Shown here in pieces: positions 10,856 through 50,158 of a DNA stretch of 64,000 nt. Position numbers and translations under genes: made by a program. This DNA is from Spirochaetia bacterium. Its GTDB lineage: Bacteria > Spirochaetota > Spirochaetia > WTKD01 > G963693115. The notes under the pieces are model-generated. The model made no database searches, was not told where the DNA came from, and saw only the letters and a list, made by a program, of their open reading frames with translations. Position 1 is the stretch's first letter. Every line of letters begins with the position of its first letter. The DNA lies in NCBI GenBank assembly GCA_965218205.1, contig OZ244590.1, positions 1,176,178 to 1,240,177 on the forward strand, written 5' to 3'.

Positions 10856-11648
10856 GCACTACTGAGCTTTTATAGCAAGAAAATAAATGGAGTACTATAT
10901 CGAGTATTTGTTTTCGTAGTCTGCTATCTAAAAAGCTTACTGGTTCATCTAATATGATAAGCTTTGGTTTTACAATAAATACCCGTACTAACGATAATCG
11001 TTGTAGTTCTCCTCCAGATACCTGATGAGGCAAACGGTGCAAAAGAGCATTGGATATTCCTACTTTTTGTAAAAGTTCAAATAACTCATGCTGAAACGTT
11101 TCTCGTAATGCTTTTTTACTTATTTCTGTTTTTGTTGTGTTGTTATCTGTATACATTGTTTCATAGTATGTCTTTTTATATGCAGTAAAAGTATCGTACA
11201 TACTTTGATATATGCTAAGACGGGGATTGAAACTTGCAAGGGGTTGCTGATATACCATTTGACATTGTAAATACATGCTTTTTTTATAATGAGAATAATG
11301 TTGCTTTTTATTCTTAAAATAAAAATTTCCTGATAAAGGAGAGATAGTGCCAGCTAGTAGCTTTGCAAGTGTAGACTTACCTGCTCCAGAATATCCTTGT
11401 ATGCCCACAAACTCATGATGAGATATATCAATAGATACATCATGTAATAGTAATGATTGCAGTAATGCACTTTGCTTCGTACTGTTAGTATTGCTATGAG
11501 TATTGTCTTTTTGTAGTATTGCATGTTTTAAGGCAGTATACTTTTTGGAAGAAGAAACAGTATGCCAAGAAAAATACACATGCTCAAATCTTATAAAAGA
11601 AAGAGAAGTATCATTTGTATATATACTGTTAATAGTACTATCTTTCAT
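10767..11648 (-). CDS. ABC transporter ATP-binding protein, peptide/nickel (OppF/DppF/NikE-like) family
   Basis: 293 aa. Walker A GYSGAGKST. The motif MVYQQPLASFNPRLSIYQ is characteristic of Opp/Dpp/Nik ATPases. ABC signature LSGGELQRLSL and Walker B LIILDEP are present. Confidence 0.85.
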   Translation of the reverse strand: MKDSTINSIYTNDTSLSFIRFEHVYFSWHTVSSSKKYTALKHAILQKDNTHSNTNSTKQSALLQSLLLHDVSIDISHHEFVGIQGYSGAGKSTLAKLLAGTISPLSGNFYFKNKKQHYSHYKKSMYLQCQMVYQQPLASFNPRLSIYQSMYDTFTAYKKTYYETMYTDNNTTKTEISKKALRETFQHELFELLQKVGISNALLHRLPHQVSGGELQRLSLVRVFIVKPKLIILDEPVSFLDSRLRKQILDIVLHLFSCYKSSVVLISHLEEVLRYTCSSIYTLEAGMLKKISP

Positions 11649-11673: not shown

Positions 11674-12375
11674 TTATTTTTGCAATGAATTATAAAATAA
11701 AGATTGAATATAGGGATGTTTTTTTGTCAGTACTTCTTGTGTTGTCCCCATTATTACTTGTTCTCCATTGTGAAGAACAAGTATTTTTGAACAAAATTGT
11801 TTAATAAGGTGCATTCTATGTGTTACAAGAACAAGTGCTTTTGTGTGCTTTTTTAATAACTGTAGTATTTCCATTTCATGCTTTCTATCAAGAGAAGAAC
11901 TAATCTCATCAGCAAGAATCCAGTCATACCCACATGCTAATACCATTGCTAGCATAATTCTCTGTGCCATCCCTCCTGATAGCTGTTGTGGATAAGAAGA
12001 TAGTAGCTCTTTTGTTGCTGGCAAATCAACATTGCGTAAAGATTTGTGTATTACTTCATCATCTATACGGATATGAGGAGCTATAGTATGGAGTTTCTTA
12101 AATGAAGAATATACAGTACGTAATGGATTTAAGCATGATTTTGAATCTTGAAAAATCATACCAAAACGTGGAGAAGGAAATTGTAGCATCCCACTTATTT
12201 CTAACGTATCTGAAATAGAATTGATTATTCCTGCAAGCGTTTTTAGTAAAGTAGTTTTTCCTGCTCCCGAATGTCCTACTACAGCAAGGACTTCCCCTTC
12301 TGACAAAGATATGCTAATATCCTTAAGAACATATGTTTCTTGTTTTTGTACAGTAAGATTGTGAGCTAGCATCAT
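11674..12375 (-). CDS. ABC transporter ATP-binding protein, peptide/nickel (OppD/DppD/NikD-like) family
   Basis: 233 aa. Walker A GHSGAGKTT. FQDSKSCLNPLRTV. Signature LSGGMAQRIMLA. Overlaps the permease gene by 4 nt. Confidence 0.85.
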   Translation of the reverse strand: MMLAHNLTVQKQETYVLKDISISLSEGEVLAVVGHSGAGKTTLLKTLAGIINSISDTLEISGMLQFPSPRFGMIFQDSKSCLNPLRTVYSSFKKLHTIAPHIRIDDEVIHKSLRNVDLPATKELLSSYPQQLSGGMAQRIMLAMVLACGYDWILADEISSSLDRKHEMEILQLLKKHTKALVLVTHRMHLIKQFCSKILVLHNGEQVIMGTTQEVLTKKHPYIQSLFYNSLQK

Positions 12376-13304
12376 AGCGTATCACCATAAGAAATAGTTG
12401 TATAATAACGCTTATAGAGTAATTTTAAGATTATATGCACAGTGCCTATAATTACCCCGTATACTAACACAATAGTTCTCATCAATAACAAATCACGGGA
12501 GTTTACTGCATTTACAAGTAAAGTGCCAAGACCAGGAATTGCAAAAGTAAATTCTATGAGAATGCTGCCTCCCATCAATATACTTATCTGTACTGACGAA
12601 ATGGCAATAGTATATAATAGAGCGTTTGGGAGTATATCATTTTTCCATATCTGTGATTGGGAATACCCGAGACTATAAGAAAAATGTACAAAAGGGAGCT
12701 TACTAATCATAGTTACTGCTTTTAGTAAAGAACGCACATACAAAGGAATTTGTAGCAACACTAACACTATGAGAGGAACAATATACCGTACCACACTCTC
12801 AAGAGAAACATTACTTGAAGTATAAAACAGAGGAATTGGAATAGAAAAAAAAGTAACACACATTATTATAAGTAAACTTAACGTGAGGGGGGTAAAAGAC
12901 AATAGCATAGTTTCTAATACAGTATAGATTTTCTTTATGAAATGTACATGCTGATACTGAAAAAGTATTTTTACTATAGAAAGTGAAAAAAATAATGCTA
13001 TTATCCAAGAAAGTCCATTTAAGAGTAGCGTAATACCCCAATGTGATACAATAAGATCAACAATAGGAATATCAAGATATACTGATGTTCCTAATTGTAA
13101 ATGCAACAACGACCATACCCATGAAAAAAAAGAGTACATATAGGTAGAAAATGTAGTATCATCTGTTTGGATGCTTGTATACTCCATACCTGCAAGAATT
13201 TCTTCTGCATTGCCTGGCAAGATAACACTTATTGTATATACTATAAAAGCAAGTCCAAAAAGTAATAATAAAAACTGAGCAATAAAGAAAAATAATTGTT
13301 TCAT
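12372..13304 (-). CDS. ABC transporter permease (OppB/DppB/NikB-like, BPD_transp_1)
   Basis: 310 aa, multi-pass membrane protein. N-terminus ILPGNAEEILAGMEY resembles OppB/DppB. An EAA-like loop (SLGYSQSQIWKNDILPNAL) is present. No second permease or substrate-binding protein gene is adjacent. Confidence 0.75.
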   Translation of the reverse strand: MKQLFFFIAQFLLLLFGLAFIVYTISVILPGNAEEILAGMEYTSIQTDDTTFSTYMYSFFSWVWSLLHLQLGTSVYLDIPIVDLIVSHWGITLLLNGLSWIIALFFSLSIVKILFQYQHVHFIKKIYTVLETMLLSFTPLTLSLLIIMCVTFFSIPIPLFYTSSNVSLESVVRYIVPLIVLVLLQIPLYVRSLLKAVTMISKLPFVHFSYSLGYSQSQIWKNDILPNALLYTIAISSVQISILMGGSILIEFTFAIPGLGTLLVNAVNSRDLLLMRTIVLVYGVIIGTVHIILKLLYKRYYTTISYGDTL

Positions 13305-13349
13305 GTGTGTAAGAGATATTACATTCTTTCTATCTATTTTATGAGTATC

Positions 13350-14153
13350 TTAGACACTATGCAATGCTTCATGCAAAAAAGTATGTACTCCTGAAATACC
13401 ATCTTGGTGCAATATGTTAATGATATGACTTCCAATAACAAGAATATCAACATACCCTTTGAGTGCTTTAATGTGCTTAATGCTTGAAATTCCAAACCCT
13501 CCTATAATAGGAACAGAAAAGTAGTTTCGTATATTTTGTAAAAAAGACAGTACAGAAGAGTCAATAGTTTTCTTTGTTCCAGTAATGCCAATACGAAGCG
13601 TGCAATAGACTAAGTAGCTACAAATATCTGCCATAGCTTTCAAACGAGTTGTATCTACATTTGCTGAAATTACTGGTATCATAGGGATAGTATCATGAGA
13701 AGTAAATGCAGAAAACTCTTCTTCATCAAATGGTAAATCAGGAATAATACATCCTGCAACGTTCAATGCTTCTGAACAACGTAAAAATTTTTTAATACCA
13801 AAACTGTATGGAATATTTGCATAGGTCATCAATAACAATGGAATTGAAATTTCATCCCTAATGTGAGCAATAAAATCAAAACACTGTTGTATGCTTACTC
13901 CTTGTTCTAATACTGTTTGGTTTGCTTGCATAATGGTACTGCCGTCTCCTAAAGGATCACTAAACGGTAGTTGTATTTCAATATGTGAAACGCCTGCATC
14001 TACCATAGTTTTGATAAGCTGATAAGAAGTGTCAAAATTTGGGTATCCAGCAACAACATGTGTCATGAGAGTAGTAGGACTATTTGAATGTTGAGATAGC
14101 TGTGTACTTAGTGTATGTTTCTTTTTTATGTGTTTCATTTTATTTTTTATCAT
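13350..14153 (-). CDS. trpA: Tryptophan synthase alpha subunit
   Basis: VVAGYPNFDTSYQLIKTMVDAGVSHIEIQLPFSDPLGDGSTIMQANQ is the TrpA active-site region. The start is ambiguous (Met1 at 14153 overlaps trpB; Met6 at 14138 abuts the trpB stop). Confidence 0.88.
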   Translation of the reverse strand: MIKNKMKHIKKKHTLSTQLSQHSNSPTTLMTHVVAGYPNFDTSYQLIKTMVDAGVSHIEIQLPFSDPLGDGSTIMQANQTVLEQGVSIQQCFDFIAHIRDEISIPLLLMTYANIPYSFGIKKFLRCSEALNVAGCIIPDLPFDEEEFSAFTSHDTIPMIPVISANVDTTRLKAMADICSYLVYCTLRIGITGTKKTIDSSVLSFLQNIRNYFSVPIIGGFGISSIKHIKALKGYVDILVIGSHIINILHQDGISGVHTFLHEALHSV

Positions 14154-15537
14154 CCGTATGTCTTGCTATTTGATCTGTAAGATATGCAAGCCACCCTTCC
14201 TTATCAATATGTGGTGCAGCAATAAATATGTCTTTATCCCCTCTCCCTGATATATTCACCACTATGTTTACTGGACGCTGAGCAGCTACTTTTTTTGCTA
14301 TGTTGGTGTTGCTCATCTTTTTTTGCTTTAGCAGTGATGCTATTTTTGGTAACACTGCAATGGCATGAGAGCTTTCAAGTGCAGGGATGATACCTTCTGT
14401 TTTTGAAAGTAAGCTGTACCCTTGTATAGCTTGGGCATCACTTGCATAGGTAAAATGAACGCGTCCTATATCATAATAATGTGCAAGCTGTGGGGAAATT
14501 CCCGAATAATCTAATCCTGCACTAATTGAATGTGTATTTGCAATTTGCCCGTCTTTGTTCTGTAAAAAATATGATTTATACCCTTGAGTAATGCCAATAC
14601 TCGCATTCCCTTGAAGACGTACTGCATGTTTCTTACTAGACAAGCCATATCCACCAGCTTCAACACCAAGCAATGCGGTATTAGTATGTTCAAAAAAACT
14701 GGAAAATATACCCATTGCGTTTGACCCTCCCCCTACACATGCTATTATCATATCAAGAGCTACCGATGAAGAAGTACCAGAGAGAGAAGGATGCTGCTTT
14801 TCTGTACTGCTGTTTTTTTTCATTGATGCCTGTTGTTCTTGAAAATATGTCTGAAATTGCTCTTGCAACTCTATGCTGATAATAGATTGAAAAAATTGAA
14901 CAATATTAGGATATGGAAATGGACCAAGTGCTGATCCAAGTATATAATGAGTATCAAAAACATGTTCTATCCAATATTTCATTGCAGCATTTACCGCATC
15001 TTTGAGCGTTCTGTTTCCTTCTTTTACAGAAACAACCTTTGCTCCCATCAATTTCATAGCGTATACATTAGGATGTTGTCGTTTTACATCAGTTTCTCCC
15101 ATAAATATAATGCAATCAAGTCCTAATTTAGCACATGCTGCAGCTGTGGCAAGACCGTGTTGTCCTGCACCAGTTTCAGCTACAATTTTATTTTTTCCCA
15201 TATATTTTGCAAGTAAGGCTTGCCCGAGTGCATTATTCATTTTATGAGCACCAGTATGATTAAGATGCTCAAGTTTTAGAAATATGTTAGAGTCTTTATG
15301 TAAACCTGCTTTTTTAATAACAGTGTGTGTTAGATTATCTGCTTTGTAGAGAGGACTTGGTCTGCCATTATATTTTTTTTGTACATCGTTGAGTTCGTCA
15401 ATAAATTGAGTAGTATCAATACATTGTACAAAGGCAGTAGCTAATTCATCTAATGGTTGTATTAACATCTCAGGGACATATCTACCACCATATGTACCAA
15501 AATAGCGATGTAGTGTAATATTACTTTTCTTGTACAT
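14140..15537 (-). CDS. trpB: Tryptophan synthase beta subunit (long form with ~30-aa internal insertion and C-terminal extension)
   Basis: HTGAHKMNNALGQALLAKYMGK...VAETGAGQHGLATAAACAKLGLDCIIFMGETDV is the TrpB PLP site. It is 465 aa against ~400 typical. A Ser/Gln-rich insert lies before ACVGGGSNAMG. Confidence 0.9.
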   Translation of the reverse strand: MYKKSNITLHRYFGTYGGRYVPEMLIQPLDELATAFVQCIDTTQFIDELNDVQKKYNGRPSPLYKADNLTHTVIKKAGLHKDSNIFLKLEHLNHTGAHKMNNALGQALLAKYMGKNKIVAETGAGQHGLATAAACAKLGLDCIIFMGETDVKRQHPNVYAMKLMGAKVVSVKEGNRTLKDAVNAAMKYWIEHVFDTHYILGSALGPFPYPNIVQFFQSIISIELQEQFQTYFQEQQASMKKNSSTEKQHPSLSGTSSSVALDMIIACVGGGSNAMGIFSSFFEHTNTALLGVEAGGYGLSSKKHAVRLQGNASIGITQGYKSYFLQNKDGQIANTHSISAGLDYSGISPQLAHYYDIGRVHFTYASDAQAIQGYSLLSKTEGIIPALESSHAIAVLPKIASLLKQKKMSNTNIAKKVAAQRPVNIVVNISGRGDKDIFIAAPHIDKEGWLAYLTDQIARHTDDKK

Positions 15538-15600
15538 ATCTATATCAATTATATACTATTAGTACATTTTTTATAAGAGGAATTTCTTTTTATATAATCT

Positions 15601-15639
15601 CCTATAGCAAAAAAGGAGCATTTCCTTTCTTGCTATAGG
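15601..15639. terminator. 17-bp-stem hairpin immediately 3' of the giant lipoprotein gene (no clear U-tract). Probable terminator or stabilising stem-loop, also conserved at 58251-58289
   Basis: cctatagcaaaaaagga gcatt tcctttcttgctatagg has 16/17 complementary positions. The same structure follows paralog 3. Confidence 0.55.
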
Positions 15640-15662
15640 CATGTGTCTCTTATGTACCTCTA

Positions 15663-18600
15663 TTATGAAGTACATTCTGGATCATCTCTATCCTTTGGAA
15701 ACCAATCTGTTTTTTTTGCCATAGCTGAATTTTGGAAATCACCATTCTTTACTGATATTTTACAAATTTTCCACGAGGATAAATTTTGATTAAATTCAGA
15801 AGCGTTATAAAAGACAAAATTAAATCTTGTAACATTACCTACATTCCAACCTGATATATCCTTATCAAACTTACTTGCGTCTCTAAACATAAGATCCATA
15901 TTAGTAACCTTACGCGTATCCCAATCTCCTATATCTTTATTAAAAGCACGTGCTCTATTGAACATAGAACTCATATTAGTAACTTTGCTTACATCCCAAT
16001 CTCCTATATTTTTATTAAAAGCACTTTCTTGAAATAGAGCTTGCATATTCGTTACATTACTGGTATTCCACTGTGTTATATTTCCATTAAAAGTACTATC
16101 TTGATAAAATAAAGCATTCATATCAGTAATAGCACTGGTATCTATCATGTTGAGGTTGGGGCTAGGGTTGTTGTTACCTCCTGAACCTTGTCTTGTTTTT
16201 TCTGCAGTGATAATAGCTTGCAGTGCTGCTTTTGTTGTTGGTCTGTAATAGGTAGCTGATTGTCCTGCTAGTTTTACCAGCCCTGTCTCTACATTGATAG
16301 TCGCAAGTACCTTTTGTCCCGAGTTTGCTCCCGCAGAAGTAATGGTACACTCCACTACTCCATAGCTATACTCAGTTATAGCAGTATCATGTATGTTTGA
16401 TTTATTTGCTGTGCCTGCTATCGTTACTGTATTGGTATTTTTTGCAAATGTTACTGTTAAGCCTGTTTCTTGTTTGAGTGTGCTGTTATCTACTGTGCTT
16501 TCATCACAGGTAAATGATAGTCCACTAGGACTAATGCTGGTAAGTACTCTTGTTGTATGTGCTGATGTTGGTGCTGAGCCTACTGTTGCTGAAACTTTTG
16601 TAGCATTTCCTATCACTACTACTGGAGTGCTGGCAGAGACTGCTGTTGCTTCTGCTGATACCTTTGTCTTTTTGAGGCTGTTTACTGCTACTGCGGTGAT
16701 ATAGTACTTTGTATTCAATCGTAGGTTGCGTATTGTATAGCTTGTTGCTCCTGTTGGTACATCGTCTTTTTCTGCTCCTACTTGTGCATCGCTTGCTGCT
16801 TGTGCTTGTGTTTTTACTGTTGCTCCATTTATGCTTGTATTTGAGGCTATATAGTATACTTTGTAATCTATTTGATTATCTCTGAGAGTAGTTGTTCCGT
16901 CTTCTGTTGTTCCTTTCACGGTTGGGGCTGTTATGGTAAGTACTATGGTTGCTCCTTGTGCATTTGCTTGTATGGTGGGCTTTCCTGGTGCTCCATAGGC
17001 TTCTTTTGCGATAAACTCCTTGCGGACACCTCTTGATTCTTTGTTAGGATCGGTGCTGTTTACTGCTTGCACTACTATTTCGTAGCTTGTGCCTACTGTC
17101 ACACTGGTCAGAGTGCTGTTGGTTGTTCCTGCTGCTGTTGTTGTGGGGCTTCCTCCTGCTGCTATTATTATCTCTGCTATTGTCCTCTGTGAACTACCAT
17201 TTTTTGCTACTTTGTATACTTTGTACGATACTTGTGCTACTGCTAGGGTGTCTCCTGTGTCTGTTTTGTGGCTTGCAGTAAGGCTGGGGGCTGTCCACGA
17301 TAGCGTTGCATTCCTTCCTTCTACTCCTTTTACTTGTATGTTGCTTACTTCTGCGGGATCTGTTGCTTGTGATGCGGTTGTTACTGTTGCCACTGTCGAT
17401 ACTGCTTTTTTGCTTGGGTCTGTTTTTATGGCTACTTCTACTACAAAGTGATACTTTGTCGCTCCTTTTATTGCTACTGTTGGGGATGTCACGCCTAAAC
17501 TGCTAAGCGCTGGTACTGTGTACACTCCGTTCCTTGCACTGCCTATAGTTACTTTTCTGCCTTTTTGTACTTCTGCTACTGTTGGGGTTGTGTCTTTCTG
17601 TAAGCCGTACACTGTGTATACTAGCTCATCATTGCTGGTTACTGTTGTGCCGTCTTTGTTTTTTGCTCCTGTTATTGTGCTTAATTGTGTGAGTACTAGC
17701 TTTATTGTTCCTGTTGTGTTTGTTGATTGTGATACTACCAGCTTGTTTGCTAAGGACGAGGTAGGGGCTGTTGCTTTTGATCTGGGGATGGTGCTCAGTT
17801 CTAGTGTTTGTATCAGTGCTGGGTCCTTGCTTTGTGCTTTCTTTGTTGTAGAGGGGTTCAGGCTGTTTATTGCTTCTATGCCTATGGTGTATACTGCTCC
17901 TTTTGTTCCTATAAATGTTCCTCGTAAAGTGCTACTTCCTGCTATGTCTTGTGTTTGTACTCCTGTTATTGTTTTTATTTCGGCTATTGTTTTAGTACTC
18001 TGGTCTCCTGCTACTAGGTATACTTTGTACTGTATCTGTGCTTGTGTGAGTTTGCTGTCATTGGGTGCTTTGTGGTTGTCGGTAATTGTTCCTGCTTGAA
18101 ACTCGTACTGTACGGTATCGCTTGTTGCTGTTGATTCTGCAATAAGCAGAGTGAGGGTTTCTGGTGCGGGGGGGACAGTGGATATTGCATCATATACTGC
18201 TACTTTGTCAGTGAGTGTTGTTGGGGGGCTTACTCTGTTATTTTCTACTGTGAGAAAGCTAAAGCTATATTGTTTTGCATTGGCTTGTGTTGCTGATACT
18301 TCTATGCCATCTGCTATGCCAAAGCTAATGGTGGTAGCTATTCCTGTTATGCTTTTTTCTGCTATCAGTGTAGTGCTATCGTACATACGCAGGGTGTAGT
18401 ACTTATTTGATCCAGGTGCTTGCGTAAAGGTTGCTTTTATTTGTATTGCTCCTGTTGTTGTAACGAGGGCAGGCTTGCTTTGAAAGAGTTCTGCTGAGGG
18501 GGCTGTGAGTGGGGTGGGTGTTGTTATGTCTTGTGTTTTTGCATTGCTTTTGTTTTCTGCATAGTCTATTGCTTGTATTGTTACTGTGTATGTTTTGCCT

Positions 18601-20216
18601 TGACTGAGTGCTTCGACAGAGAGCGATGTTGTGGGATAGGGTATTTTTTTCTCGTTCAGTACTGTGGTAGTTGTGCCTTTCTCTTGTATGCTTATGCTGT
18701 ATTCTTTTATGTCTTTGTTCTTTGCTTTTGTTGCATCGGGTGCTGTCCATGTTATCTGTGTTGCTACTTTTGTTGCTGATACAAAGGGATAGCTTGCTTG
18801 TATGTTTGTTACTGGATCGGGATCGGTGCTATCTGCTCCTGTATCTACTGTTGCTGTTGCTTCTGTTCCTTTGTTGCCTGCACTGTCCATTGATACGACT
18901 GCCACTGTATACTCGGTGGTAGCTTTGAGGCCTGGTATCTGTGTGTTGCGTAGTGTTCTGTCTGTTATTGTTACTGTCTTTGCTGGAGTATCGCTCTCTT
19001 TCTCTGTTGCTGTTATAGTCACTCCTGCGTAGTCTCGTACATTGGGGGCTTGCCAGATGACTACTATGCTTGTTGCTCCTCCTACGGCACTTACATTGGT
19101 CGCGGGCTTTGTTGTTTTGTCGGTTGTTGCTTGTTCTTTTGACACTGCAGTGGAGTACTTTCCGTTTTGAGAGACATACACTTCTACTTTGTACGTAAGC
19201 GTGCCGTAGAGTTTTGTGAGTGCTATGCCATCTTTTGCGACATACACAGTGGCATATTCTTTTGTCTGTGCAGTTGCACTGCTGACATTGGTTGCACTGG
19301 TATCTTTGCTTATTGTCTCCTCTGCTACTATCGTCTGTGTTGCGGTTGCTGTTACTCGTACTAAGAGGCTTTTTGCTGTGTTGCCTGTTCCAAAGGCAAA
19401 GCTCCCCCACTTGATAAGCAGGCTTTCATCGGCAGGGCTATTGCTTTTATCGTTTGCTGTTACTGTAAGATTTGCCTCTGGTAGTGCTGCTACTGTTTGT
19501 GAGAGTGCTGATGCTTTTACGCCTGTCAGTACTGTTGTAGGACTGCTTGTGTTGTCATTTCTGTCTTTGTAGCGTATTTCTACATCATAGGATATGCCTG
19601 CAAGCGTAGAGATGTTTGGAAGCACAACCTCTCCTTGCTGTAGATTCTGCACGGTAGCTTGTGCAAGCACTGTGCCATCATTAGCCGTGCTTTTTACCAC
19701 TATTGTTGCTTCTGCTATGTCTGTCTTGCCTACTGCTAGTCGCTCTTTGTCCCATGTTATCTTTATGCCATCCCCCGACTTTTCTACTCCTACCTGTGTC
19801 AATGTGTCCTGTGGGGTAGTAGTATCTATCAGTGTTGTCACGGTGCGGGTTGTTTTTGGTGATACTTCTGTGTCCTTTTGGGCTTCAATCTCTACAGTGT
19901 AGTTAGTGAGTGCTTGCAAGCCTTTGAGTTTGTACGATTGTCCTTGTTGAAAGAGTGTTTGATATTCTATGGCAGGAACACGCACTTGTATTGATTGGGC
20001 TGGTGCGGTAGAGGTAGCGTTTACGACTACATGCGTGGCATCGCTTGGGGCTTGCCAGCGTAAAGCAAGCGTCCCATCATTGCCTGCTGGCTGTATCTGC
20101 ACATTGGACAGTGATGCAAGGGTCGGGGTTACCTGTTTCCCTCCCCCTCCGCCTGATGAGGAACTGCTACTGCCCTCCGAACATGCTACGAGTACGAGGG
20201 TAGTTATTGCTAGCAC
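15663..20216 (-). CDS. Giant surface lipoprotein, paralog 1. Multiple FN3/Ig-like repeats plus C-terminal DUF285 (BspA/mycoplasma-type) repeats. Body as called from GTG 20216; the true initiation is probably the ATG at 20314, currently out of frame (see the poly-G feature)
   Basis: 1517 aa. Lipobox LVAC, then a Ser/Gly linker. Repeated FN3-like endings (YTVTIQAIDYAENKS, EYTVAVVSMDSAGNKG). The C-terminal tandem motif ...MFxxAxxFNxDIGxWDVSxVTNM is typical of DUF285. The called GTG start leaves only 11 residues before the lipobox Cys, with no charged n-region. Confidence 0.85.
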   Translation of the reverse strand: MLAITTLVLVACSEGSSSSSSGGGGGKQVTPTLASLSNVQIQPAGNDGTLALRWQAPSDATHVVVNATSTAPAQSIQVRVPAIEYQTLFQQGQSYKLKGLQALTNYTVEIEAQKDTEVSPKTTRTVTTLIDTTTPQDTLTQVGVEKSGDGIKITWDKERLAVGKTDIAEATIVVKSTANDGTVLAQATVQNLQQGEVVLPNISTLAGISYDVEIRYKDRNDNTSSPTTVLTGVKASALSQTVAALPEANLTVTANDKSNSPADESLLIKWGSFAFGTGNTAKSLLVRVTATATQTIVAEETISKDTSATNVSSATAQTKEYATVYVAKDGIALTKLYGTLTYKVEVYVSQNGKYSTAVSKEQATTDKTTKPATNVSAVGGATSIVVIWQAPNVRDYAGVTITATEKESDTPAKTVTITDRTLRNTQIPGLKATTEYTVAVVSMDSAGNKGTEATATVDTGADSTDPDPVTNIQASYPFVSATKVATQITWTAPDATKAKNKDIKEYSISIQEKGTTTTVLNEKKIPYPTTSLSVEALSQGKTYTVTIQAIDYAENKSNAKTQDITTPTPLTAPSAELFQSKPALVTTTGAIQIKATFTQAPGSNKYYTLRMYDSTTLIAEKSITGIATTISFGIADGIEVSATQANAKQYSFSFLTVENNRVSPPTTLTDKVAVYDAISTVPPAPETLTLLIAESTATSDTVQYEFQAGTITDNHKAPNDSKLTQAQIQYKVYLVAGDQSTKTIAEIKTITGVQTQDIAGSSTLRGTFIGTKGAVYTIGIEAINSLNPSTTKKAQSKDPALIQTLELSTIPRSKATAPTSSLANKLVVSQSTNTTGTIKLVLTQLSTITGAKNKDGTTVTSNDELVYTVYGLQKDTTPTVAEVQKGRKVTIGSARNGVYTVPALSSLGVTSPTVAIKGATKYHFVVEVAIKTDPSKKAVSTVATVTTASQATDPAEVSNIQVKGVEGRNATLSWTAPSLTASHKTDTGDTLAVAQVSYKVYKVAKNGSSQRTIAEIIIAAGGSPTTTAAGTTNSTLTSVTVGTSYEIVVQAVNSTDPNKESRGVRKEFIAKEAYGAPGKPTIQANAQGATIVLTITAPTVKGTTEDGTTTLRDNQIDYKVYYIASNTSINGATVKTQAQAASDAQVGAEKDDVPTGATSYTIRNLRLNTKYYITAVAVNSLKKTKVSAEATAVSASTPVVVIGNATKVSATVGSAPTSAHTTRVLTSISPSGLSFTCDESTVDNSTLKQETGLTVTFAKNTNTVTIAGTANKSNIHDTAITEYSYGVVECTITSAGANSGQKVLATINVETGLVKLAGQSATYYRPTTKAALQAIITAEKTRQGSGGNNNPSPNLNMIDTSAITDMNALFYQDSTFNGNITQWNTSNVTNMQALFQESAFNKNIGDWDVSKVTNMSSMFNRARAFNKDIGDWDTRKVTNMDLMFRDASKFDKDISGWNVGNVTRFNFVFYNASEFNQNLSSWKICKISVKNGDFQNSAMAKKTDWFPKDRDDPECTS

Positions 20217-20290
20217 TAAAAACAGTGCAACGAGAGTTATGCTTTGCTTATATCGAGAGTGTACCCCCCCCCCCCCCCGATTTTTTTCAC
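16100..20290. repeat. Large direct repeat copy 1 (~4.2 kb, near-identical to 58760-62940)
   Basis: Block-by-block comparison of the two lipoprotein genes and their 5' ends. They diverge 3' of ~16100/58760 (DUF285 cassette) and 5' of the G tracts. Confidence 0.85.
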
Positions 20291-20314
20291 GCTTTGTAGA
20301 TCTCTATGTATCAT
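20237..20314 (-). other. Signal-peptide leader ORF of lipoprotein paralog 1 (ATG with AAGGAGG SD). It reads through a 15-nt G tract and terminates out of frame in the present sequence
   Basis: SD cctcct is at 20321-20326 (minus AGGAGG). ATG is at 20314..20312. The peptide MIHRDLQSVKKIGGGGG then goes +2 out of frame. With 16 or 13 G it continues VHSRYKQSITLVALFLVLAITTLVLVAC|SEG, a canonical lipoprotein signal peptide. Confidence 0.7.
20264..20278. repeat. Homopolymeric tract, C15 on the + strand (G15 on the coding strand) inside the lipoprotein signal-peptide coding region. Candidate slipped-strand phase-variation switch
   Basis: Counted directly: gta + 15 c + gattttttt. Confidence 0.9.
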
Positions 20315-20351
20315 AAAGGCCTCCTTATGTTATTTAGTATCATATATGAAT

Positions 20352-20361
20352 ATTATAGCAA
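20352..20361 (-). promoter_or_regulatory. Extended -10 promoter element TGcTATAAT for lipoprotein paralog 1
   Basis: The minus strand reads ttgctataat at 20361..20352, ~38 nt upstream of the leader ATG. The same TTGCTATAAT recurs upstream of paralog 3 (~63036-63045). Confidence 0.5.
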
Positions 20362-20412
20362 ATAATAGTATTTTATATATCTATAAAGCAAATAGCATGC
20401 ATCTCTATATTA

Positions 20413-23400
20413 CTATGATTTACATTCTTTACTATTTATGTCTTTTGGGTACTGTGTTGTTTTTCCTGCCATAGCTGAATTTGAGAAATCATAACTGCTA
20501 AGAAATACCTTACACAATCTCCATGATGATAAATCTTGATCAAATGCAGAGGCTTTCTCAAACGCAACAGCAAAACTATTAACATTCCTTACATTCCAAT
20601 TTCCTATGTCTTGATCAAAGATATTTGCTCTATTAAACATTGCAAACATATCCCTTACATTACTCACATTCCAATTTCCTATATCTTGATTAAAGGCACT
20701 TGCTCTCGTAAACATTGAAAACATACTCCTTACATTACTGGTATTCCACTGTGTTATATCTCCATTAAAGGTACTATCGTTATCAAATAAATTACTCATA
20801 TCAGTGATAGCACTGGTATCTATCATGTTGAGATTGGGACTATTGGTGTTTTGCCTCCTTGCTCCTCTTTCTGCACTGATAATAGCTTTAAGCTGCTTCT
20901 TTGTCGTTGGTCTGTAATAAGTAGGTGATGTCTCTCCTGATGGTGCTGCTTTTAGTCCTGTCTTTATGATAATGCTTGCTGGTACTCTTTTATTTGAAGC
21001 GGTAATTGTACACTGTACTACATCATAGCTATAGTTAGTAATAGCAAGATCATGCACATTAGATTTATTTGCTATGCCTGATATAGTAATTGTTTTACTA
21101 CTCTGTTCAAACTGTAGTGCTAAGCCTGTTTCTTCTTTAATTTTCTTGCTATCTCCTTCCCGTATATTAGCATCACAGGTAAATGCAACGCCACTGGGAC
21201 TGCTTACTAATCTTCTTGTACTATGTGCTGATCTTGGGGCTTTACCTACTTCTGCTGAAACCTCCATAGTGTTTCCTATAATCACTGCTGACATTTCAAA
21301 CTCATGTCGTTCTCCTGTTGATGTTTTTGTCGTATCGGTGCTGTTTACTGCTTGTACAACTATTTCGTAGGTTGTTCCGTTTATCAAGCCTGTCAGGGTA
21401 GTGTTGGTTGTTCCTGCTCCTACTGTTGTGGGGCTTGAGTCTGCTTGTTTTATCGCTGTCGCACTTCTTGCACTGCCACTCTTGGCAATACTGTATACCT
21501 TGTACGATACTTGTGCAGTAATTAAGGCATCCCCTGTATCTGCTTTGTGATTTGCACTGAGGCTAGGAGCTGTCCATGATACTCTCATGCCTATTGGGGT
21601 TGTTCTTGTTTGTATGTTTCTTACTTCTGCTGGAGCAGTCGCTAGCGATACGGTTATTATGCTTGCCACTGATGAAGATGCTACTTTCTTGCTAAGATCT
21701 GCTTTTATTGCTACCTCCAATACAAAGTGATACTTTGTCGCTCCTTTTATTGCTATCACTGGTGCAGTGTCTGAAGATAAGCCTAAACTCATCAAGGCTG
21801 GTACTGTGTACACTCCGCTACTTGCACTGCCTATGTTTACTTTTCTTCCTGCAAGCACTTCTGCTACTGTTGGTATTGTGTCTTTCTGTAAGCCGTACAC
21901 GGTGTACACAAGCTGTGCATCTGCTGTTATATCTTTGCCATCGTAGTCTTTTGCTCCCGTAAATGTGCTTAGCTGGGTGAGCCTCAGGTTTATTTTCCCT
22001 GCTGTGCTTGATTGTGACAGTACCAGCTTTCCTGTAAGCAATGATCTATTGGGTGCTACTGCCTTTGAAGTATAGACTTCCTTTATTTCCGTTATATCGG
22101 TGTAAAAGCCTGCAGGAAAGAGCCTGTCGCTATTTGATGCATCGTAATCGGGGGATGTTGTGTTTACTATCCTCACTCCTATATAGTAATCTTTTGCTGT
22201 TTCTATGGGTGTTGCTCCTGCATTGCTTCCACTGGTACTGTCTACTATTGGTATCTGTACAGTCGCTTGATTTGTCATTCCTGTTGCTTTTGTGTATTTT
22301 GCTACTCTCACTGCTACCTTTGAATGGCTTTTTTCTACTGCCCATAGGGCTGATACACTGTCAGGCTTTCCAGTGCTGTCTTCTTTCTTGAGATATAGCA
22401 CATAGTACGCAAGATCAGTTGCTTCAAGAGGAGTACCATCTGCTTTACGCATTCCTGCTATGGCTGAGGCATTTACCTGTACTGTTATGACTTTTTTTCC
22501 TGTATTGCCTCCTGTGCTAGGCACTGAAAATACTACTGCATTATTGCTAGTATATGTTGTTATTTTTGGTGTTGTTGGTGGAGGAGTGAGTGCTTTTGTT
22601 ATTATTGTTCCTGATGCTCCTATGCTATAGGCGGGACTGAGGCTGTTTATAGCTTCCACTCCTACAGTATAGGTTGCATCTCTTTTTCCTATAAATGATA
22701 CGCTGTACCTTGTAGTATTCTTTCCTGCTAGCTCCCGTATTTGTTTCTGTGTTTCTACTCCTGCAAGAGTTTTTATTACATCTATTGTTTTTGTGCTGTG
22801 ATCTCCTTCTGCTATGTACACTTTGTACTGTATCTGTGCCTGTGTAAGTTTGCTTCCATTAGGAGCTTTGTTGTCAGTAGTAATGTCGCCTGCACTAAAC
22901 TCATAGACTGCTGTTGCTGTTGTTTGTGTTGCTGACACTACAGAGAGCTTTGCATCCTTGGGAGCAGGTGGTGCAGTTGAAGTATCATCATATACTGCCA
23001 CTGTATCAGCAAGAGAGGTTATGAATCTTACTATATTATTTTCTATTTGCAGAAAGATAAAGCGATAGTCCTTCTTTGTTGCTTCTGTCTTGGGTACTTC
23101 TAAACCATCTGCTATACCAAAGCTAATGGTGGTATCTGTTCCTGTTATGCTCTTGTCTGCTATTGAGTTTTTGCTATAGCTAACAGTAGTGTCTGTTCCT
23201 GCTATGCTCTTGTCTGCTATTAAGTTTTTGCTATCGTACATAAGCAGGGTATAATATCGTCCTACGCCAGGAGCTGTCTTAAAGGTTGCTTTTATTTGTA
23301 CTGCTCCTGTTTTGTCTAAGCTAGGTTTATTTTGAAATATATCTTCTGATGGGACTGTAGGTTTAGGAGGGGGGTTTAAGGGAGGCTTAGGAGTCTGTAT

Positions 23401-23514
23401 ATCTGTGGTAGTTACTGTTTCTGTACATCCTAGCACAAAAAGCGTAGCCACTACTAGCATCCATGCCAGCGTAACTGTAATTATTCTTTGTAAAATCAAG
23501 GTGCACCTCCTCAA
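20413..23514 (-). CDS. Giant surface lipoprotein, paralog 2. It lacks the first ~570 aa of paralog 1, has no G tract, and carries its own C-terminal DUF285 cassette
   Basis: 1033 aa. Lipobox FVLGC. Colinear with paralog 1 from ...QNKPSLDKTGAVQIKATF onward. The ORF-track start is TTG at 23514. A second TTG at 23499 sits 6 nt after GAGGAGG and is the likelier start (MILQRIITVTLAWMLVVATLFVLGC). An in-frame TGA lies 3 codons upstream. Confidence 0.8.
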   Translation of the reverse strand: MRRCTLILQRIITVTLAWMLVVATLFVLGCTETVTTTDIQTPKPPLNPPPKPTVPSEDIFQNKPSLDKTGAVQIKATFKTAPGVGRYYTLLMYDSKNLIADKSIAGTDTTVSYSKNSIADKSITGTDTTISFGIADGLEVPKTEATKKDYRFIFLQIENNIVRFITSLADTVAVYDDTSTAPPAPKDAKLSVVSATQTTATAVYEFSAGDITTDNKAPNGSKLTQAQIQYKVYIAEGDHSTKTIDVIKTLAGVETQKQIRELAGKNTTRYSVSFIGKRDATYTVGVEAINSLSPAYSIGASGTIITKALTPPPTTPKITTYTSNNAVVFSVPSTGGNTGKKVITVQVNASAIAGMRKADGTPLEATDLAYYVLYLKKEDSTGKPDSVSALWAVEKSHSKVAVRVAKYTKATGMTNQATVQIPIVDSTSGSNAGATPIETAKDYYIGVRIVNTTSPDYDASNSDRLFPAGFYTDITEIKEVYTSKAVAPNRSLLTGKLVLSQSSTAGKINLRLTQLSTFTGAKDYDGKDITADAQLVYTVYGLQKDTIPTVAEVLAGRKVNIGSASSGVYTVPALMSLGLSSDTAPVIAIKGATKYHFVLEVAIKADLSKKVASSSVASIITVSLATAPAEVRNIQTRTTPIGMRVSWTAPSLSANHKADTGDALITAQVSYKVYSIAKSGSARSATAIKQADSSPTTVGAGTTNTTLTGLINGTTYEIVVQAVNSTDTTKTSTGERHEFEMSAVIIGNTMEVSAEVGKAPRSAHSTRRLVSSPSGVAFTCDANIREGDSKKIKEETGLALQFEQSSKTITISGIANKSNVHDLAITNYSYDVVQCTITASNKRVPASIIIKTGLKAAPSGETSPTYYRPTTKKQLKAIISAERGARRQNTNSPNLNMIDTSAITDMSNLFDNDSTFNGDITQWNTSNVRSMFSMFTRASAFNQDIGNWNVSNVRDMFAMFNRANIFDQDIGNWNVRNVNSFAVAFEKASAFDQDLSSWRLCKVFLSSYDFSNSAMAGKTTQYPKDINSKECKS
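23132..23245. repeat. 57-bp x2 tandem duplication inside paralog 2. It encodes a repeated 19-aa unit (…ADKSIAGTDTTVSYSKNS / …ADKSITGTDTTISFGIAD) that is single-copy in paralogs 1 and 3
   Basis: Unit 23132-23188 against 23189-23245, ~90% identical. Confidence 0.7.
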
Positions 23515-23608
23515 TTTTTTTCACGCTTTGTAGCTATTTTGTTTGTAGCTACTATTTGTAAAATATACTCCTCACTCCTTATTACATTATTTATTATAGC
23601 ATAAAAAA

Positions 23609-24586
23609 TTATAATAGAAAAGGCACAAACAAAAAATTTTCAGTCAATAATTCAGCATTTCTATCAAACATTGTAATGAGAGAATATACATACCATTTCT
23701 CATACATTAGATTCTCAGTATTGATATCTTCTATGTACTTATATAACGATAACAACATACGATTAAATTCCATTACATTCAAGTCTAAAAGAGATTCTTG
23801 ATAAGAATACACTAAGTCAATCATACGAGATATATCAGTATACTCATAGGTAGGATACACTGACGCGAGATAATTATTGATATGAGTCATTGCCATAGAC
23901 AAAGCGTATAACAACAGCTCAATACCTTTGTCCTGCTGACCAGCACTGATATAATAAATGCCAAGTTCACGAAACGCATAGAACGATGAATCAAAATCAA
24001 CCTTTACAAATACATGTATATCGTCTAATCCATCTTCTACTAAGATTTTTTTTAATACATCTAAATCATTTGTAAACAATGCTTCTTTTTCTTGAACAAT
24101 CTCTTGTAATATAGCAACAAAGGCCTCTTCATTTTCTTCAAAAAAATAAAGCAGTGCTAAACGATAGCGTACTATATTTCTAGCATCATAGTGCAAGGTA
24201 GGGAGAGTATCATACAAAATAGTATAATAATTCTTTGCATTGATAACATCACCAAGTAAAAAATAAACATTAGCTACTCCCAACAGAGCAGTACTATTTT
24301 CTTTATTTTTTTGGTAAGCTGATACATACAGCTCTAAAGCCTTAAGAAAATTTTTATTTTCAATATAAATATTTGCTTGCTGAAATTGCTTTGCTTGCTG
24401 ATACTCCATTACACTTATTGTGCCATTCTCTTTTTGAAAAAAAAGAAGTGGATCTTCTAGCAACAAATTTTCAACCCAATGCTCCTCTGTCTGACTAAAA
24501 AGAGAATTTTGGGCAGTAAGAGACATCATTGCTATACCAATAAGCAACATATATTTCTTTATCTGCACTAACAGCATACTGCCCAA
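23609..24586 (-). CDS. Secreted TPR-repeat protein (hypothetical)
   Basis: 325 aa. N-terminal signal peptide (LLIGIAMMSLTAQNSLFSQ). TPR-like helical repeats (ALELYVSAYQKN..., GDVINAKNYYTIL...). Directly downstream of the V-ATPase operon. Confidence 0.6.
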   Translation of the reverse strand: MGSMLLVQIKKYMLLIGIAMMSLTAQNSLFSQTEEHWVENLLLEDPLLFFQKENGTISVMEYQQAKQFQQANIYIENKNFLKALELYVSAYQKNKENSTALLGVANVYFLLGDVINAKNYYTILYDTLPTLHYDARNIVRYRLALLYFFEENEEAFVAILQEIVQEKEALFTNDLDVLKKILVEDGLDDIHVFVKVDFDSSFYAFRELGIYYISAGQQDKGIELLLYALSMAMTHINNYLASVYPTYEYTDISRMIDLVYSYQESLLDLNVMEFNRMLLSLYKYIEDINTENLMYEKWYVYSLITMFDRNAELLTENFLFVPFLL

Positions 24587-47674: not shown

Positions 47675-50158
47675 TTATAGCTTAAATGTTAAGTATAGTG
47701 AAAATTCAAGATATTTCGTAAAACTATTAGCATCAATGTTATATGTATATTCTCTTCCATCAATATCTTTATCTGATGCTCCTTCTGTCTTATCATCTTT
47801 TATATCTCTCTTAAATGTTAAGAAAGCAAGCAAATTACCTAAGGCAAAACGATAGTTAAAGGTGAGAAATTTATTATCCACAAACACCCCTGTAAAAGAA
47901 GGCACTAAGGTCATCACGGGAATGTACTCTCTTGCTGAATTAATTTCTCTTTCTTGCCTGATGAGATTTCCTTTATCATCTTTTACTACTTCGTTAGGAG
48001 TAAATGGTTTGTCTATTGCAAAAGAACTAGACAGTGCAAAAGTAAACACTTCATGGGGGCTTACTGAGTATTTCATTCCAATAGTATGACGTGTATCATC
48101 ATTAGATGGTAACCACTCATTGTCTTTTGTATAGAAATAAGAAAATCCTAGTGTATAGGAAAGCTCAAATGTTTGAATATTTTTACTATACTTCCAACGA
48201 GTGGTTGCTCCAGTACCATAGCCATAATTTACAGGCTTATATGCGTAGTTTCGAGTAGCATCTGTATCTCTATATCTAAACTGACTAAATATTCCATGAA
48301 AATTATAGTACCAGCCAAAATACGGAGTAAGCGATAACTGATGATTTCCAAGTTCAATAAGGTATTTTGTAGAGGCCATAATGCCATAATTAGGATCTGT
48401 ATACGATGTTTTGCTGTCTGTATACTCTACTGTTTTTTCTAACACCTTTCTGTCTATGTACTGCAATTTTTCTAAAAAAGCAGGACTCCATCCTAATGAA
48501 AAAGAAATAGTGTGTATATCAGAAAAAGTGGTAGCATACTCACTTCGAAGCGAAGGATACAAAGAGCTAGCTGATTGAGCAACCCATGATACGCCTGGAC
48601 TTATAGAAAATTTAACATCTCCCCTATCAAAATAATCTTCATAGTCATATTGACCGTATAGATATAATCGTAAATAATCTTCGTTTATTGTAATGTTTTT
48701 ATCTTGATTTTCTTTATTTGTAGGACTACTTACATTAGCATATGTATAAGTATCTCCATAGCTAGCATCTAGGACAGAATACTCAACACTAGAGCCTGCA
48801 CTCACTATATGCTTATCAGTTAATGCCCATGAAAAAGAATCATTCAACGCAGAGTACCATACTTTTGATGTTCCATCATAATCGTAGCCAATAGTTCCCT
48901 TCGTCTCTCCTCTTTCTTTTAAGCGTTTTATAGCATCATCTGAGAGTTTTTTTAATGTATATTGCGAATTTAATGAGACTACAGAATAGTATGAAATAAT
49001 ATCTATAACATGTAAACCTCTATCTGCAACTACTTTTCGCCATTGCACTCCTCCTCCAAAAAAGTAGGGAAAATCTTGCTTTTCTCCTTCAAACGGATTG
49101 TCTTGCGAAGTATTTTTTACATCCAGCTGTACTATATCATAGTAGGCAAGCCCCAGTACTTTTACTACATCATTTTGATTTTTATAGGTAAAAGACAAGA
49201 AATAATCCCCATATGTATACCAATCAACATTTATGTCACTATCATCAGTAGCTAACACTTCAATAAGTGGAATTAGAGTATACCTCTCAATAGATTGCCG
49301 TGCTATCGCAAATAATGTTGCATTCTTTCCTATTGTCTGCCTATACCCAATATAAGGGGCAGTGGCACTCAACCCTAACATGAGACGATTATTCTGTACA
49401 TCCTTAGGATATGCAATTACTGTTCCTCCAAGTGATTGTCCATACCTTCCAGGAGGAGGTCCCTTGATGGTCTTAATAGATCCCACCGTTTCCTTAGAGA
49501 TAATAGGCTGGCTACTATTAGAATAATGTGCATTAGTCGGAACAGGCAAAAAATCAACATAGTTCTGATTCCATGCACTGTCTCCTCCAAACACAGAATA
49601 ACTTGTTCCTAATGTAAAAAATGAATTTGTACCAGGCTCTAGGATTCTCGCCATAGAAGCATTTCCTATATCATCTTGCATCACTCCTGCTTCAGAGGTA
49701 ATAATACTAAAAGGGTCACCTCGTTCAAGGGAGGCATTTTCTACCTCAGATTCCCCGTATTCTGTAATGTTTGGCTCTTGTTGTATATCTCTGTCTGCAG
49801 TAACTATTATCTCCTCTTCTACTAACTCAGCCTGTGAAGATTGCTCCACTACAATCTCAAATACTGTTGGATTAGCACTGGTATCTTGTCCTGCATTAAC
49901 ACTAAAAGAAAAATCAGCTTCATCAGCAGCAAGAGTGATAACTTTAAGCGTATATTCACCTGGCTCTACATCAAAAAAAGCAAAATTACCCTCTTCATCA
50001 CTTAGTTCAATGATGTCTAACTCAACGAGTATGACTGTTGCCTCAACAACAGGTTCATCATTTTGTATAATACTCCCATAATAATCTTCAGAAAATACAG
50101 TAATGCTTCCTACTATTAATAAGAAACATACAAACATGCTTAATTTCTTATATACCAT
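47675..50158 (-). CDS. TonB-dependent outer-membrane receptor with N-terminal carboxypeptidase-regulatory-like domain
   Basis: 827 aa. Signal peptide. The beta-sandwich-like N-terminal domain (VEATVILVELDIIELSDEEGNFAFFDVEPGEYTLKV) is followed by a TonB-box/plug start EEEIIVTADRD. Long Tyr/Gly-rich beta-barrel region. Divergent from the exbB-exbD-tonB cluster. Confidence 0.65.
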   Translation of the reverse strand: MVYKKLSMFVCFLLIVGSITVFSEDYYGSIIQNDEPVVEATVILVELDIIELSDEEGNFAFFDVEPGEYTLKVITLAADEADFSFSVNAGQDTSANPTVFEIVVEQSSQAELVEEEIIVTADRDIQQEPNITEYGESEVENASLERGDPFSIITSEAGVMQDDIGNASMARILEPGTNSFFTLGTSYSVFGGDSAWNQNYVDFLPVPTNAHYSNSSQPIISKETVGSIKTIKGPPPGRYGQSLGGTVIAYPKDVQNNRLMLGLSATAPYIGYRQTIGKNATLFAIARQSIERYTLIPLIEVLATDDSDINVDWYTYGDYFLSFTYKNQNDVVKVLGLAYYDIVQLDVKNTSQDNPFEGEKQDFPYFFGGGVQWRKVVADRGLHVIDIISYYSVVSLNSQYTLKKLSDDAIKRLKERGETKGTIGYDYDGTSKVWYSALNDSFSWALTDKHIVSAGSSVEYSVLDASYGDTYTYANVSSPTNKENQDKNITINEDYLRLYLYGQYDYEDYFDRGDVKFSISPGVSWVAQSASSLYPSLRSEYATTFSDIHTISFSLGWSPAFLEKLQYIDRKVLEKTVEYTDSKTSYTDPNYGIMASTKYLIELGNHQLSLTPYFGWYYNFHGIFSQFRYRDTDATRNYAYKPVNYGYGTGATTRWKYSKNIQTFELSYTLGFSYFYTKDNEWLPSNDDTRHTIGMKYSVSPHEVFTFALSSSFAIDKPFTPNEVVKDDKGNLIRQEREINSAREYIPVMTLVPSFTGVFVDNKFLTFNYRFALGNLLAFLTFKRDIKDDKTEGASDKDIDGREYTYNIDANSFTKYLEFSLYLTFKL

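Follow-up and report, generated by a model that had tools for sequence, protein, structure and literature searches.

The locus examined here raises the question of how a giant lipoprotein can be made and exported when its start codon and its signal peptide are, as assembled, thrown into different frames by a run of guanines. The gene, which we call paralog 1, lies in a stretch of 64,000 nucleotides (nt; the window) from the genome of a Spirochaetia bacterium (GenBank assembly GCA_965218205.1, contig OZ244590.1, positions 1,176,178 to 1,240,177). Two further members of the same family are encoded in the window; all three genes lie on the minus strand, and positions below are those of the window unless a locus is named. 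An earlier note, made from the letters alone, had proposed that the poly-G tract sits inside the signal-peptide coding region and acts as a translational frame switch. We analysed the tract together with its counterparts in three genomes, namely the window genome (represented by the 64 kb window), the metagenome-assembled genome (MAG) CBDDCA01 ‘Spirochaetia bacterium’ (6 contigs, ~2.25 Mb) and a third assembly, ERZ25073789. The proposal is supported by a second copy in the window, by some 20 copies in the two related genomes, by a reading frame that is conserved over nine leader lengths, by in-frame alleles and decayed, fused paralogs, by intact protein bodies, and by a promoter-like element, Shine–Dalgarno (SD) sequence and ATG that all lie upstream of the tract.

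Translation of paralog 1 can begin at an ATG (20314-20312) that is preceded, with a spacer of 5 nt, by the SD sequence AAGGAGG (20320-20326). The leader coding segment, ATG...ATC (20279-20314; 36 nt, MIHRDLQSVKKI), spans 12 codons in the same frame as the first G of the tract and leads into exactly 15 G (20264-20278; C15 on the plus strand), the candidate slipped-strand switch. As assembled, the leader open reading frame (ORF) reads MIHRDLQSVKKIGGGGGYTLDISKA* and terminates after 25 codons at a TAA (20239-20237); the two OFF frames meet stops 4 and 8 codons past the tract. The body ORF (15663-20216) comprises 1517 amino acids (aa) from a GTG at 20216, which is 11 residues ahead of the lipobox Cys. 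When the tract was swapped in silico for other lengths, only G10, G13, G16 and G19 joined leader and body of the window copies into a single ORF of 1548-1552 aa, or 1548-1551 aa for paralog 1, and all other lengths gave products of 19-26 aa, or 20-26 aa for paralog 1; gain or loss of one G is therefore enough to turn a full-length ORF into one that terminates early, or the reverse. When the gene is ON, the tract is followed by the remainder of the signal peptide (VHSRYKQSITLVALFLVLAITTLVLVAC; 20181-20263, with the Cys codon at 20183-20181), and the fused product reads ...KKIGGGGGVHSRYKQSITLVALFLVLAITTLVLVAC and then SEGSSS.

A rule-based signal-peptide check of the ON-frame product returned an n-region of 24 residues with a net charge of +4, an h-region of 20 residues with a mean Kyte–Doolittle value of 2.7, and a lipobox that is LVAC or LVGC (criterion [LVI][ASTVI][GAS]C). 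The product of the GTG start has no charged n-region. The same holds for the starts downstream of the tract in general: each GTG or ATG stands just 8-11 residues ahead of the Cys without a charged n-region, and the hydrophobic core begins well upstream of every one of them. Non-canonical starts past the tract (ATA, CTG) were considered and rejected, as they have no SD sequence and would yield no charged n-region. The earlier note had given the SD sequence, the ATG, the 15 G, the 25-codon stop and the 1517-aa body from the GTG exactly as found in the sequence and in our ORF check, and had described the GTG start, 11 residues from the Cys and lacking an n-region, as the signal-peptide check also returned it. 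Its statement that 13 or 16 G would fuse the leader to a lipoprotein signal peptide holds in silico; its description of that signal peptide as textbook does not, given the 24-residue n-region and a Cys at position 45 in the ON product of paralog 1. The corresponding Cys is at position 12 in the GTG product, 38 in tract-less paralogs, whose n-regions are likewise long, and 47 in a fused variant.

A second poly-G tract precedes paralog 2. This G14 run (62921-62934) has flanks identical to those of the paralog 1 tract and the same ON lengths of 10, 13, 16 and 19. Its leader segment and SD sequence occupy 62935-62979, with AAGGAG at 62979-62974, an ATG at 62967 that opens MDERISSIKKI, and a further in-frame ATG at 62973. 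The body ORF (58314-62873) encodes 1519 aa from a GTG at 62873, carries its Cys codon at 62840-62838 and is 89% identical in its product to the body of paralog 1. As assembled, paralog 2 is also out of frame; because the ON lengths of both genes are of the form 3k+1, the G15 and G14 copies sit in the two different OFF frames. Homopolymers of this kind are exceptional in the sequences at hand. In the window, with a GC content of 36%, the longest G/C run besides these two is 7, and runs of 13 or more would be expected by chance about 3e-4 times across the 733 kb examined. Runs of 9 or more occur 23 times in those 733 kb, 22 of them ahead of family genes and one on a detached leader remnant (locus L035), and none elsewhere. 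The G stands on the coding strand in all copies.

A family-specific scan of 185,579 species representatives returned 38 family loci in CBDDCA01 and matched no other genome. In this MAG the giant lipoproteins, which combine FN3 repeats with a DUF285 domain, account for at least 38 loci (L002-L039) of ~4.6 kb or more each, which are arranged in tandem pairs or scattered and make up ~8% of the genome. In total, about 22 tract-bearing genes are present in the three uncultured spirochete genomes: 2 in the window, 18 in the MAG and at least 2 in the third genome. The 2 window genes and 15 of the MAG genes form the main family (n = 17), and the 15 MAG members carry runs of G9, G11, G12, G13, G14 (five genes), G15 (five genes) and G16 at exactly the same position. 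Three further MAG genes, with G13, G15 and G15 behind the leader MIRNNITQKM, belong to a 2540-aa subfamily.

The leaders are conserved as coding sequence. An SD sequence (AAGGAG[G]) lies 4-8 nt ahead of the ATG, which shares its frame with the first G, in 17/17 main-family genes. Leader length takes nine values (30, 33, 36, 39, 48, 57, 60, 69 and 72 nt), every one a multiple of 3, and the leaders vary in sequence around a conserved end, ...[ED]L[QYH]S[VLM]K(K)I, with DNA differences that are synonymous or conservative. The conserved frame and the nature of these differences are those expected of a translated segment upstream of the tract and not of a promoter spacer. This anatomy and its frame logic are read directly from the assembled sequences. 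As assembled, four genes are in frame (L001 with G16, L023 with G13, L034 with G13 and L036 with G15), and in two of these the public gene call reads through the tract (P0001, from L001, beginning MNDSYKSKELYSVKKIGGGGGVHSQYKQNLTLVALFLVLAILILVGC...; and P0025, from L036). Other members have no intact tract. In the MAG paralog L019, a decayed tract is fused in frame (MKKWMDKELQSVKKNRGMGDKPQYRQN..., MKKWMDKELQSVKKNRGMGDKPQYRQNITIVAL...MLGC), and the remaining MAG paralogs have ordinary ATG leaders (MKKSNEKLNYQLNGKLNIFIVVALFLVLAMTTLVLVGC). In the window, paralog 3 (20413-23514), a tract-less relative of 1033 aa directly upstream of paralog 1, carries at the tract position TTGAGGAGGTGCACC (23514-23500), a decayed, interrupted G-run whose GGAGG, together with a TTG start at 23499, now opens a normal lipoprotein signal peptide (MILQRIITVTLAWMLVVATLFVLGC).

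The same module occurs in a more distant setting. When P0001 was used as the query of an exhaustive HMMER search, few proteins with a matching N-terminal domain emerged, two of which come from ERZ25073789. These proteins (L044 and L045) are ~40-45% identical to the query, have FN3 domains with Kelch/LRR_5 in place of DUF285, and are called with truncated or missing signal peptides. Their genes carry, in L044, AGGAGG, an ATG and a 32-nt leader (MSKMQSIMKTS) before G13 and, in L045, an ATG at 2853 and a 33-nt leader (MSEIQEPVRNI) before G15; past the tract, each gene runs on through TAGACCT..ATATAA to a hydrophobic core and a lipobox. With ON lengths of 11, 14 and 17, the two genes are OFF as assembled, and here too one unit separates the full-length ORF from early termination. 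Retention of the module across species and protein architectures argues that it is maintained by selection. Word-index protein searches returned just 2 hits each, the paralogs having probably been crowded out by low-complexity words. Scans of JGI metagenomes with the exact leader/tract DNA pattern and with protein patterns gave no match, and the Logan contig SRR26948294 and the V-ATPase locus of the third genome do not reach or do not contain lipoprotein genes.

Upstream of the SD sequence, ATG and tract of paralog 1 lies an extended -10-like element, TGCTATAAT (20352-20360), which we take to act as a promoter; paralog 2 has the same element at 63040-63048. Of its four matches in the window, three are directly upstream of the three family genes, before the SD sequence, although across the window as a whole its matches are no more numerous than chance would give; it also precedes several MAG copies. 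The element is at least 74 nt upstream of the tract, and its position together with that of the start codon indicates that control would be translational, unlike that of the promoter tracts of Treponema pallidum. A two-hexamer sigma-70 and terminator scan around both window tracts found nothing on the gene strand and no sigma-70 pair spanning the tract. Rfam and tRNA scans of the window returned no matches. The predicted RNA fold of the 5′ region was unremarkable (z = -0.59), and regulation through RNA structure was therefore dropped. A separate, purely model-based property of the region is that its energy in the ViennaRNA G-quadruplex (G4) model is predicted to fall by ~13 kcal/mol from G14 to G15 (20264-20278 as RNA), G15 being the shortest run able to form a three-tetrad G4.

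In paralog 1, a Ser/Gly linker is followed by FN3 repeats and a C-terminal DUF285 domain (Pfam DUF285, PF03382, 182 bits, 3.8e-54; fn3, PF00041, 86.7 bits, 1.2e-24; gathering cut-off 25 bits each), and FN3 repeats with a C-terminal DUF285 are common to all three window paralogs. Body ORFs are open over 1500-3300 codons in every copy, and the ratio of non-synonymous to synonymous substitution rates (dN/dS) is 0.43-0.47; judged by their sequences, the bodies are intact and under purifying selection. No special conservation of the post-tract segment was found at the DNA level, where the entire N-terminal 1.5 kb is 80-95% identical among copies.

We consider it likely, on these sequence comparisons, that a simple-sequence contingency switch operates here on translation, through slipped-strand phase variation, and that the G15 tract is its variable element. 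The transcript would begin ahead of the leader, with the extended -10 element TGCTATAAT as its probable promoter; ribosomes would start at the ATG at 20314, guided by its SD sequence, and translate a short, Lys-rich leader before entering the G-run. The frame would be kept by lengths of 3k+1 (13, 16). The resulting prolipoprotein of ~1550 aa would have 4-5 Gly in a long, charged n-region, followed by a 20-residue hydrophobic core and an LVAC lipobox, and would be exported, lipidated and displayed as an FN3-repeat stalk tipped by a DUF285 (BspA-like) domain. With other lengths, translation would end 4-8 codons past the tract and no exportable body protein would be made. Slipped-strand mispairing during replication would add or remove a G and so flip the gene between ON and OFF, and each cell would display a stochastic subset of a large repertoire of giant lipoproteins. 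In this scheme we infer the slippage itself, the use of the promoter, export, surface exposure and a function as adhesins.

Several observations weigh against this account. The tract lengths, which span G9-G16 among paralogs, are consensus lengths taken from assemblies. In both orthologous pairs the lengths are equal (paralog 1 and L013 with G15, paralog 2 and L042 with G14), as would be expected of a stable tract; this could also arise by chance, 14 and 15 being the commonest lengths. Judged by their contig names (ctgN_coverage x_l) and their evident indel errors, the related sequences appear to be long-read contigs of low coverage (4.8-8.8x), and the tract lengths and ON/OFF calls taken from them carry an uncertainty of ±1 or more. 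For example, L001, which is ON with G16, is split by a one-base insertion outside homopolymers (~11540-11584), and L040, a 4.76x contig that comes from another sample, falls apart into five short ORFs. Just 2/17 main-family genes are ON (binomial p = 0.044), so that 15/17 of this family and 18/22 genes overall are out of frame. This excess could reflect recoding, selection for mostly silent repertoires or systematic miscalling of homopolymers. Finally, the in-frame signal peptide is atypically long: a lipobox Cys usually lies ~15-35 residues from the N terminus (the PROSITE PS51257 heuristic), a range that is exceeded by the Cys at 45 and by the whole family.

One way to accommodate these points is that no switching occurs, that the real tract is fixed in frame (for example, at 16), that the G-run merely encodes a Gly linker in the n-region and that the assembled lengths are homopolymer consensus errors. 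The indels in L001 and in the five-ORF contig, which come from projects of the same kind, and the equal lengths of the orthologous tracts are what such an explanation would predict, and no integer is more than 1 away from an ON length. An assembled range of 9-16, however, is too wide for ±1 around one value, and ordinary window genes match their profiles over the full length although the window has 31 A/T runs of 8, so that only an error confined to the tract could account for the data. Real G13-G16 runs are intrinsically unstable, as in Campylobacter, Neisseria, Haemophilus and Mycoplasma. Furthermore, the paralogs that lost the switch did so through an interrupted run, which suggests that an uninterrupted run is kept only where it is selected. 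We therefore regard a fixed tract as unlikely; homopolymer error bears on the current ON/OFF state of individual genes and not on the nature of the element. Slippage of RNA polymerase or ribosomal frameshifting on the G-run could instead yield some in-frame product at any length, making the OFF state leaky or low-level. The predominance of out-of-frame lengths ahead of bodies that are intact and under purifying selection would fit such recoding, and ‘riboshifting’ was raised by the authors of work on Mycoplasma agalactiae, where a P48-like protein was seen by mass spectrometry though its gene was out of frame (PMC2824730). At the present locus no slippery heptamer with a stimulator is evident, and the RNA structure is unremarkable. 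Transcriptional slippage, moreover, is best documented for A/T runs. Recoding, which we judge quite unlikely, would modify a translational switch and would not exclude it.

That the tract tunes transcription from within a promoter or 5′ untranslated region (UTR), with translation starting at the GTG at 20216, has a precedent in a spirochete, the tpr genes and TP0126 of T. pallidum (PMC7864442). A TATAAG hexamer 11 nt past the tract, and the leader with a G14 remnant that lies ~120 nt upstream of an unrelated lipoprotein gene with its own ATG (L035), could be read in the same sense. Against this stand the strong SD sequence and the ATG upstream of the tract, always in frame with it, and the GTG start, which would leave 11 residues and no charged n-region ahead of the Cys, with a hydrophobic core that starts well upstream of the downstream start codons. 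On either side of the tract, furthermore, the best -35-like and -10-like hexamers are separated by 32 nt, and the sigma-70 scan was empty on the gene strand; we find transcriptional control of this type very unlikely. It is more improbable again that the frameshifted copies are decaying pseudogenes, dead members of an expanded family in which the G-run is a mutational scar. Most copies are indeed out of frame, and one MAG copy has an extra internal frameshift; but long bodies that stay open in every copy, with the dN/dS values given above, argue against dead genes, and the tract occupies the same codon position in three genomes and several protein subfamilies, always with G on the sense strand. 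A translational switch driven by slippage thus remains our preferred explanation.

Some smaller sequence differences are found at and around the three window genes. The start region of paralog 3 (23497-23530; L013 ~2715-2745) differs between the window genome and the MAG: the MAG has ATG-AAAAAA-TTGAGGAGG (A6), in frame, giving MKKLRRCTLILQR, whereas the window has GTG-AAAAAAA-TTGAGGAGG (A7), in which the upstream start is out of frame and only TTG starts are available. The relic of the switch thus shows a minor length polymorphism (A6/A7) in an A-run. Within paralog 1, on the coding strand, a C7 run (18168-18174, in ...VPPAPE...) ranks third in length among the G/C runs of the window; in paralog 2 an identical peptide is encoded without such a run. 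The only other long homopolymer in the window is an A16 run (50284-50299), with a T9 at 50180-50188. The A16 run is intergenic, between the start of a minus-strand gene of 827 aa (47675-50158) and a fragment of an IS481-family transposase (50464-51186, a partial profile match).

Comparison with the MAG also places the genes in their genomic context. The window encodes V-type ATPase subunits, MutS2, ClpA and CysS, among others. Of MutS1, MutL and MutS2, it shows MutS2 only; a genome lacking mismatch repair would be predicted to have high rates of slippage, like those of Campylobacter and Helicobacter. The flanking genes of the window are 96-100% identical in protein sequence to those at L013, and the region is collinear at ~89-90% nucleotide identity, which identifies the two genomes as close relatives and L013 as the syntenic ortholog of the paralog 3/paralog 1 locus. 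Within this alignment, the ends of paralog 1 and its ortholog are ~89-90% identical, and a central ~1.2 kb (16613-17852, approximately; L013 8362-9703) aligns weakly or to other paralogs, a mosaic structure that, as far as the alignment goes, is consistent with gene conversion. The ortholog of paralog 2 (compared with 58314-63048) is split by a break in the MAG assembly: L042 (9804-9942, at the end of contig_5) stops in the signal peptide just past the G14 tract, and L039 (3-2281, at the end of contig_3) starts in the C-terminal half and adjoins cysS. The promoter region of paralog 2 is orthologous in both genomes and the leader is wholly different, MKKWMNDSYQNDKLQAVKI in the MAG against MDERISSIKKI in the window, the latter being best matched by another MAG locus, L017. 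An orthologous promoter region next to a leader that differs suggests exchange of the 5′ segment between paralogs.

At L035, a leader (…KELQAVKKI) and its G14 remnant (12091-12179) have no signal peptide behind them and lie ~120 nt upstream of a different lipoprotein gene of 1697 aa (12301-17391) with its own SD sequence, ATG and signal peptide; the remnant may be a detached switch or may act at the level of transcription. The more distant relative shows that the content of the slot itself can differ. In L041 (ERZ25073789 ctg148314, 14453-20254), compared with window positions 15663-24586, DNA methyltransferases and uvrA replace the giant lipoprotein pair downstream of the V-type ATPase operon and a TPR gene, with a type I restriction–modification system upstream; the lipoprotein pair thus occupies a variable region. 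One could speculate that the whole module of SD sequence, leader, poly-G and signal peptide is a portable cassette moved by recombination among more than 20 giant lipoprotein genes of differing domain architecture, that tracts of G15 and longer, as potential three-tetrad G4s, serve as recombination hot spots, and that phase variation is thereby coupled to gene conversion and mosaic antigenic variation. The differing leader of paralog 2, the mosaic of paralog 1, the L035 remnant and the G4 energy step at G15 are hints in this direction and none of them is a test; we give the idea a low probability.

If the tracts slip as expected, a Spirochaetia genome of ~2.3 Mb would hold at least 38 giant-lipoprotein loci (~8% of the genome), about half of them behind independent stochastic switches, a repertoire comparable in size to the phasomes of Campylobacter or Neisseria and found in a lineage in which promoter-type poly-G control (that of T. 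pallidum) alone had been described. The giant lipoproteins are probably adhesins that face a host or partner, and the ~20 short, conserved sites offer a testable handle on surface variation in a spirochete. There is also a practical consequence for annotation: because gene callers start at the internal GTG or ATG and lose the signal peptide, such proteins are liable to be misclassified as cytoplasmic or as pseudogenes.

The closest described case, with the same architecture of poly-G ahead of the lipobox, is that of Mycoplasma bovis P68 and the M. agalactiae P48-like gene (MAGa1620). According to PMC2824730 (citing Lysnyansky et al. 2008), the poly-G stands in the 5′ part of the coding sequence of a surface lipoprotein gene and differs in length between strains (G8-10), and other lipoprotein genes of the genome carry 5′ poly-G of up to 13. 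A single tract length frames the signal peptide and lipobox with the body, and the annotated start lies downstream and gives no signal peptide (PMC2824730). These systems differ from the present one in their Mollicute hosts, in their shorter tracts and in involving single genes or the spma cluster (with tracts in the 5′ UTR), compared with ~20 paralogs that share an in-frame leader here. Domain content points to unrelated proteins (the P48 family and FN3/DUF285), the switch regions showed no homology in sequence, nor would any be expected, and the likeness is one of switch architecture only. M. agalactiae also has a scattered family of DUF285 lipoproteins, drp, few of which are expressed and which form rearrangement hot spots between strains (PMC2824730, PMC1868952); such families are described as variable reservoirs (PMC2824730). 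No 5′ poly-G switch has been described for drp, in which one member carries an A6/A7 frameshift; its products are much smaller and lack the FN3 stalk.

The spirochete genes would also resemble the opa genes of Neisseria (cited as an example in PMC7864442), the classical multigene family of surface proteins in which every copy has a promoter and a start codon to itself and a repeat prone to slippage within the part that encodes the leader peptide. The opa copies switch independently, so that cells express subsets; they differ in having a CTCTT pentanucleotide, in encoding β-barrel outer-membrane proteins and in comprising 11-12 loci of ~0.8 kb, compared with ~20 loci of 4.6-10 kb here. Campylobacter jejuni and Helicobacter pylori likewise have tens of poly-G tracts in a small, AT-rich genome, mostly in ORFs and generating combinatorial ‘phasotypes’. 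Their tracts are mostly G8-G13 and lie at varied positions in genes for glycan modification, flagella and restriction–modification, unlike the G13-G16 runs here, which are found at a single fixed site, the signal-peptide n-region, and within a single superfamily of giant lipoproteins.

Among spirochetes, the comparison is with T. pallidum, in which a poly-G tract in the promoter alters transcription of tprE/G/J/F/I/L and TP0126 (PMC7864442). The two systems share a spirochete host, poly-G, a family of putative surface proteins and, as predicted here, stochastic expression. In T. pallidum the tract is in the promoter, whereas here an SD sequence and ATG lie upstream of it and it is the frame that changes, so that the arrangement does not fit the promoter type. 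The earlier note was not aware of a description of the arrangement for such lipoproteins in spirochete-like genomes. Full-text literature searches indeed found no description of poly-G ahead of a signal peptide in spirochetes, the T. pallidum cases being transcriptional, whereas novelty in kind falls to M. bovis P68 and the M. agalactiae P48-like gene (PMC2824730). The architecture is thus already known in kind, and it is the lineage, the length of the tracts, and the number and size of the genes behind them that are notable.

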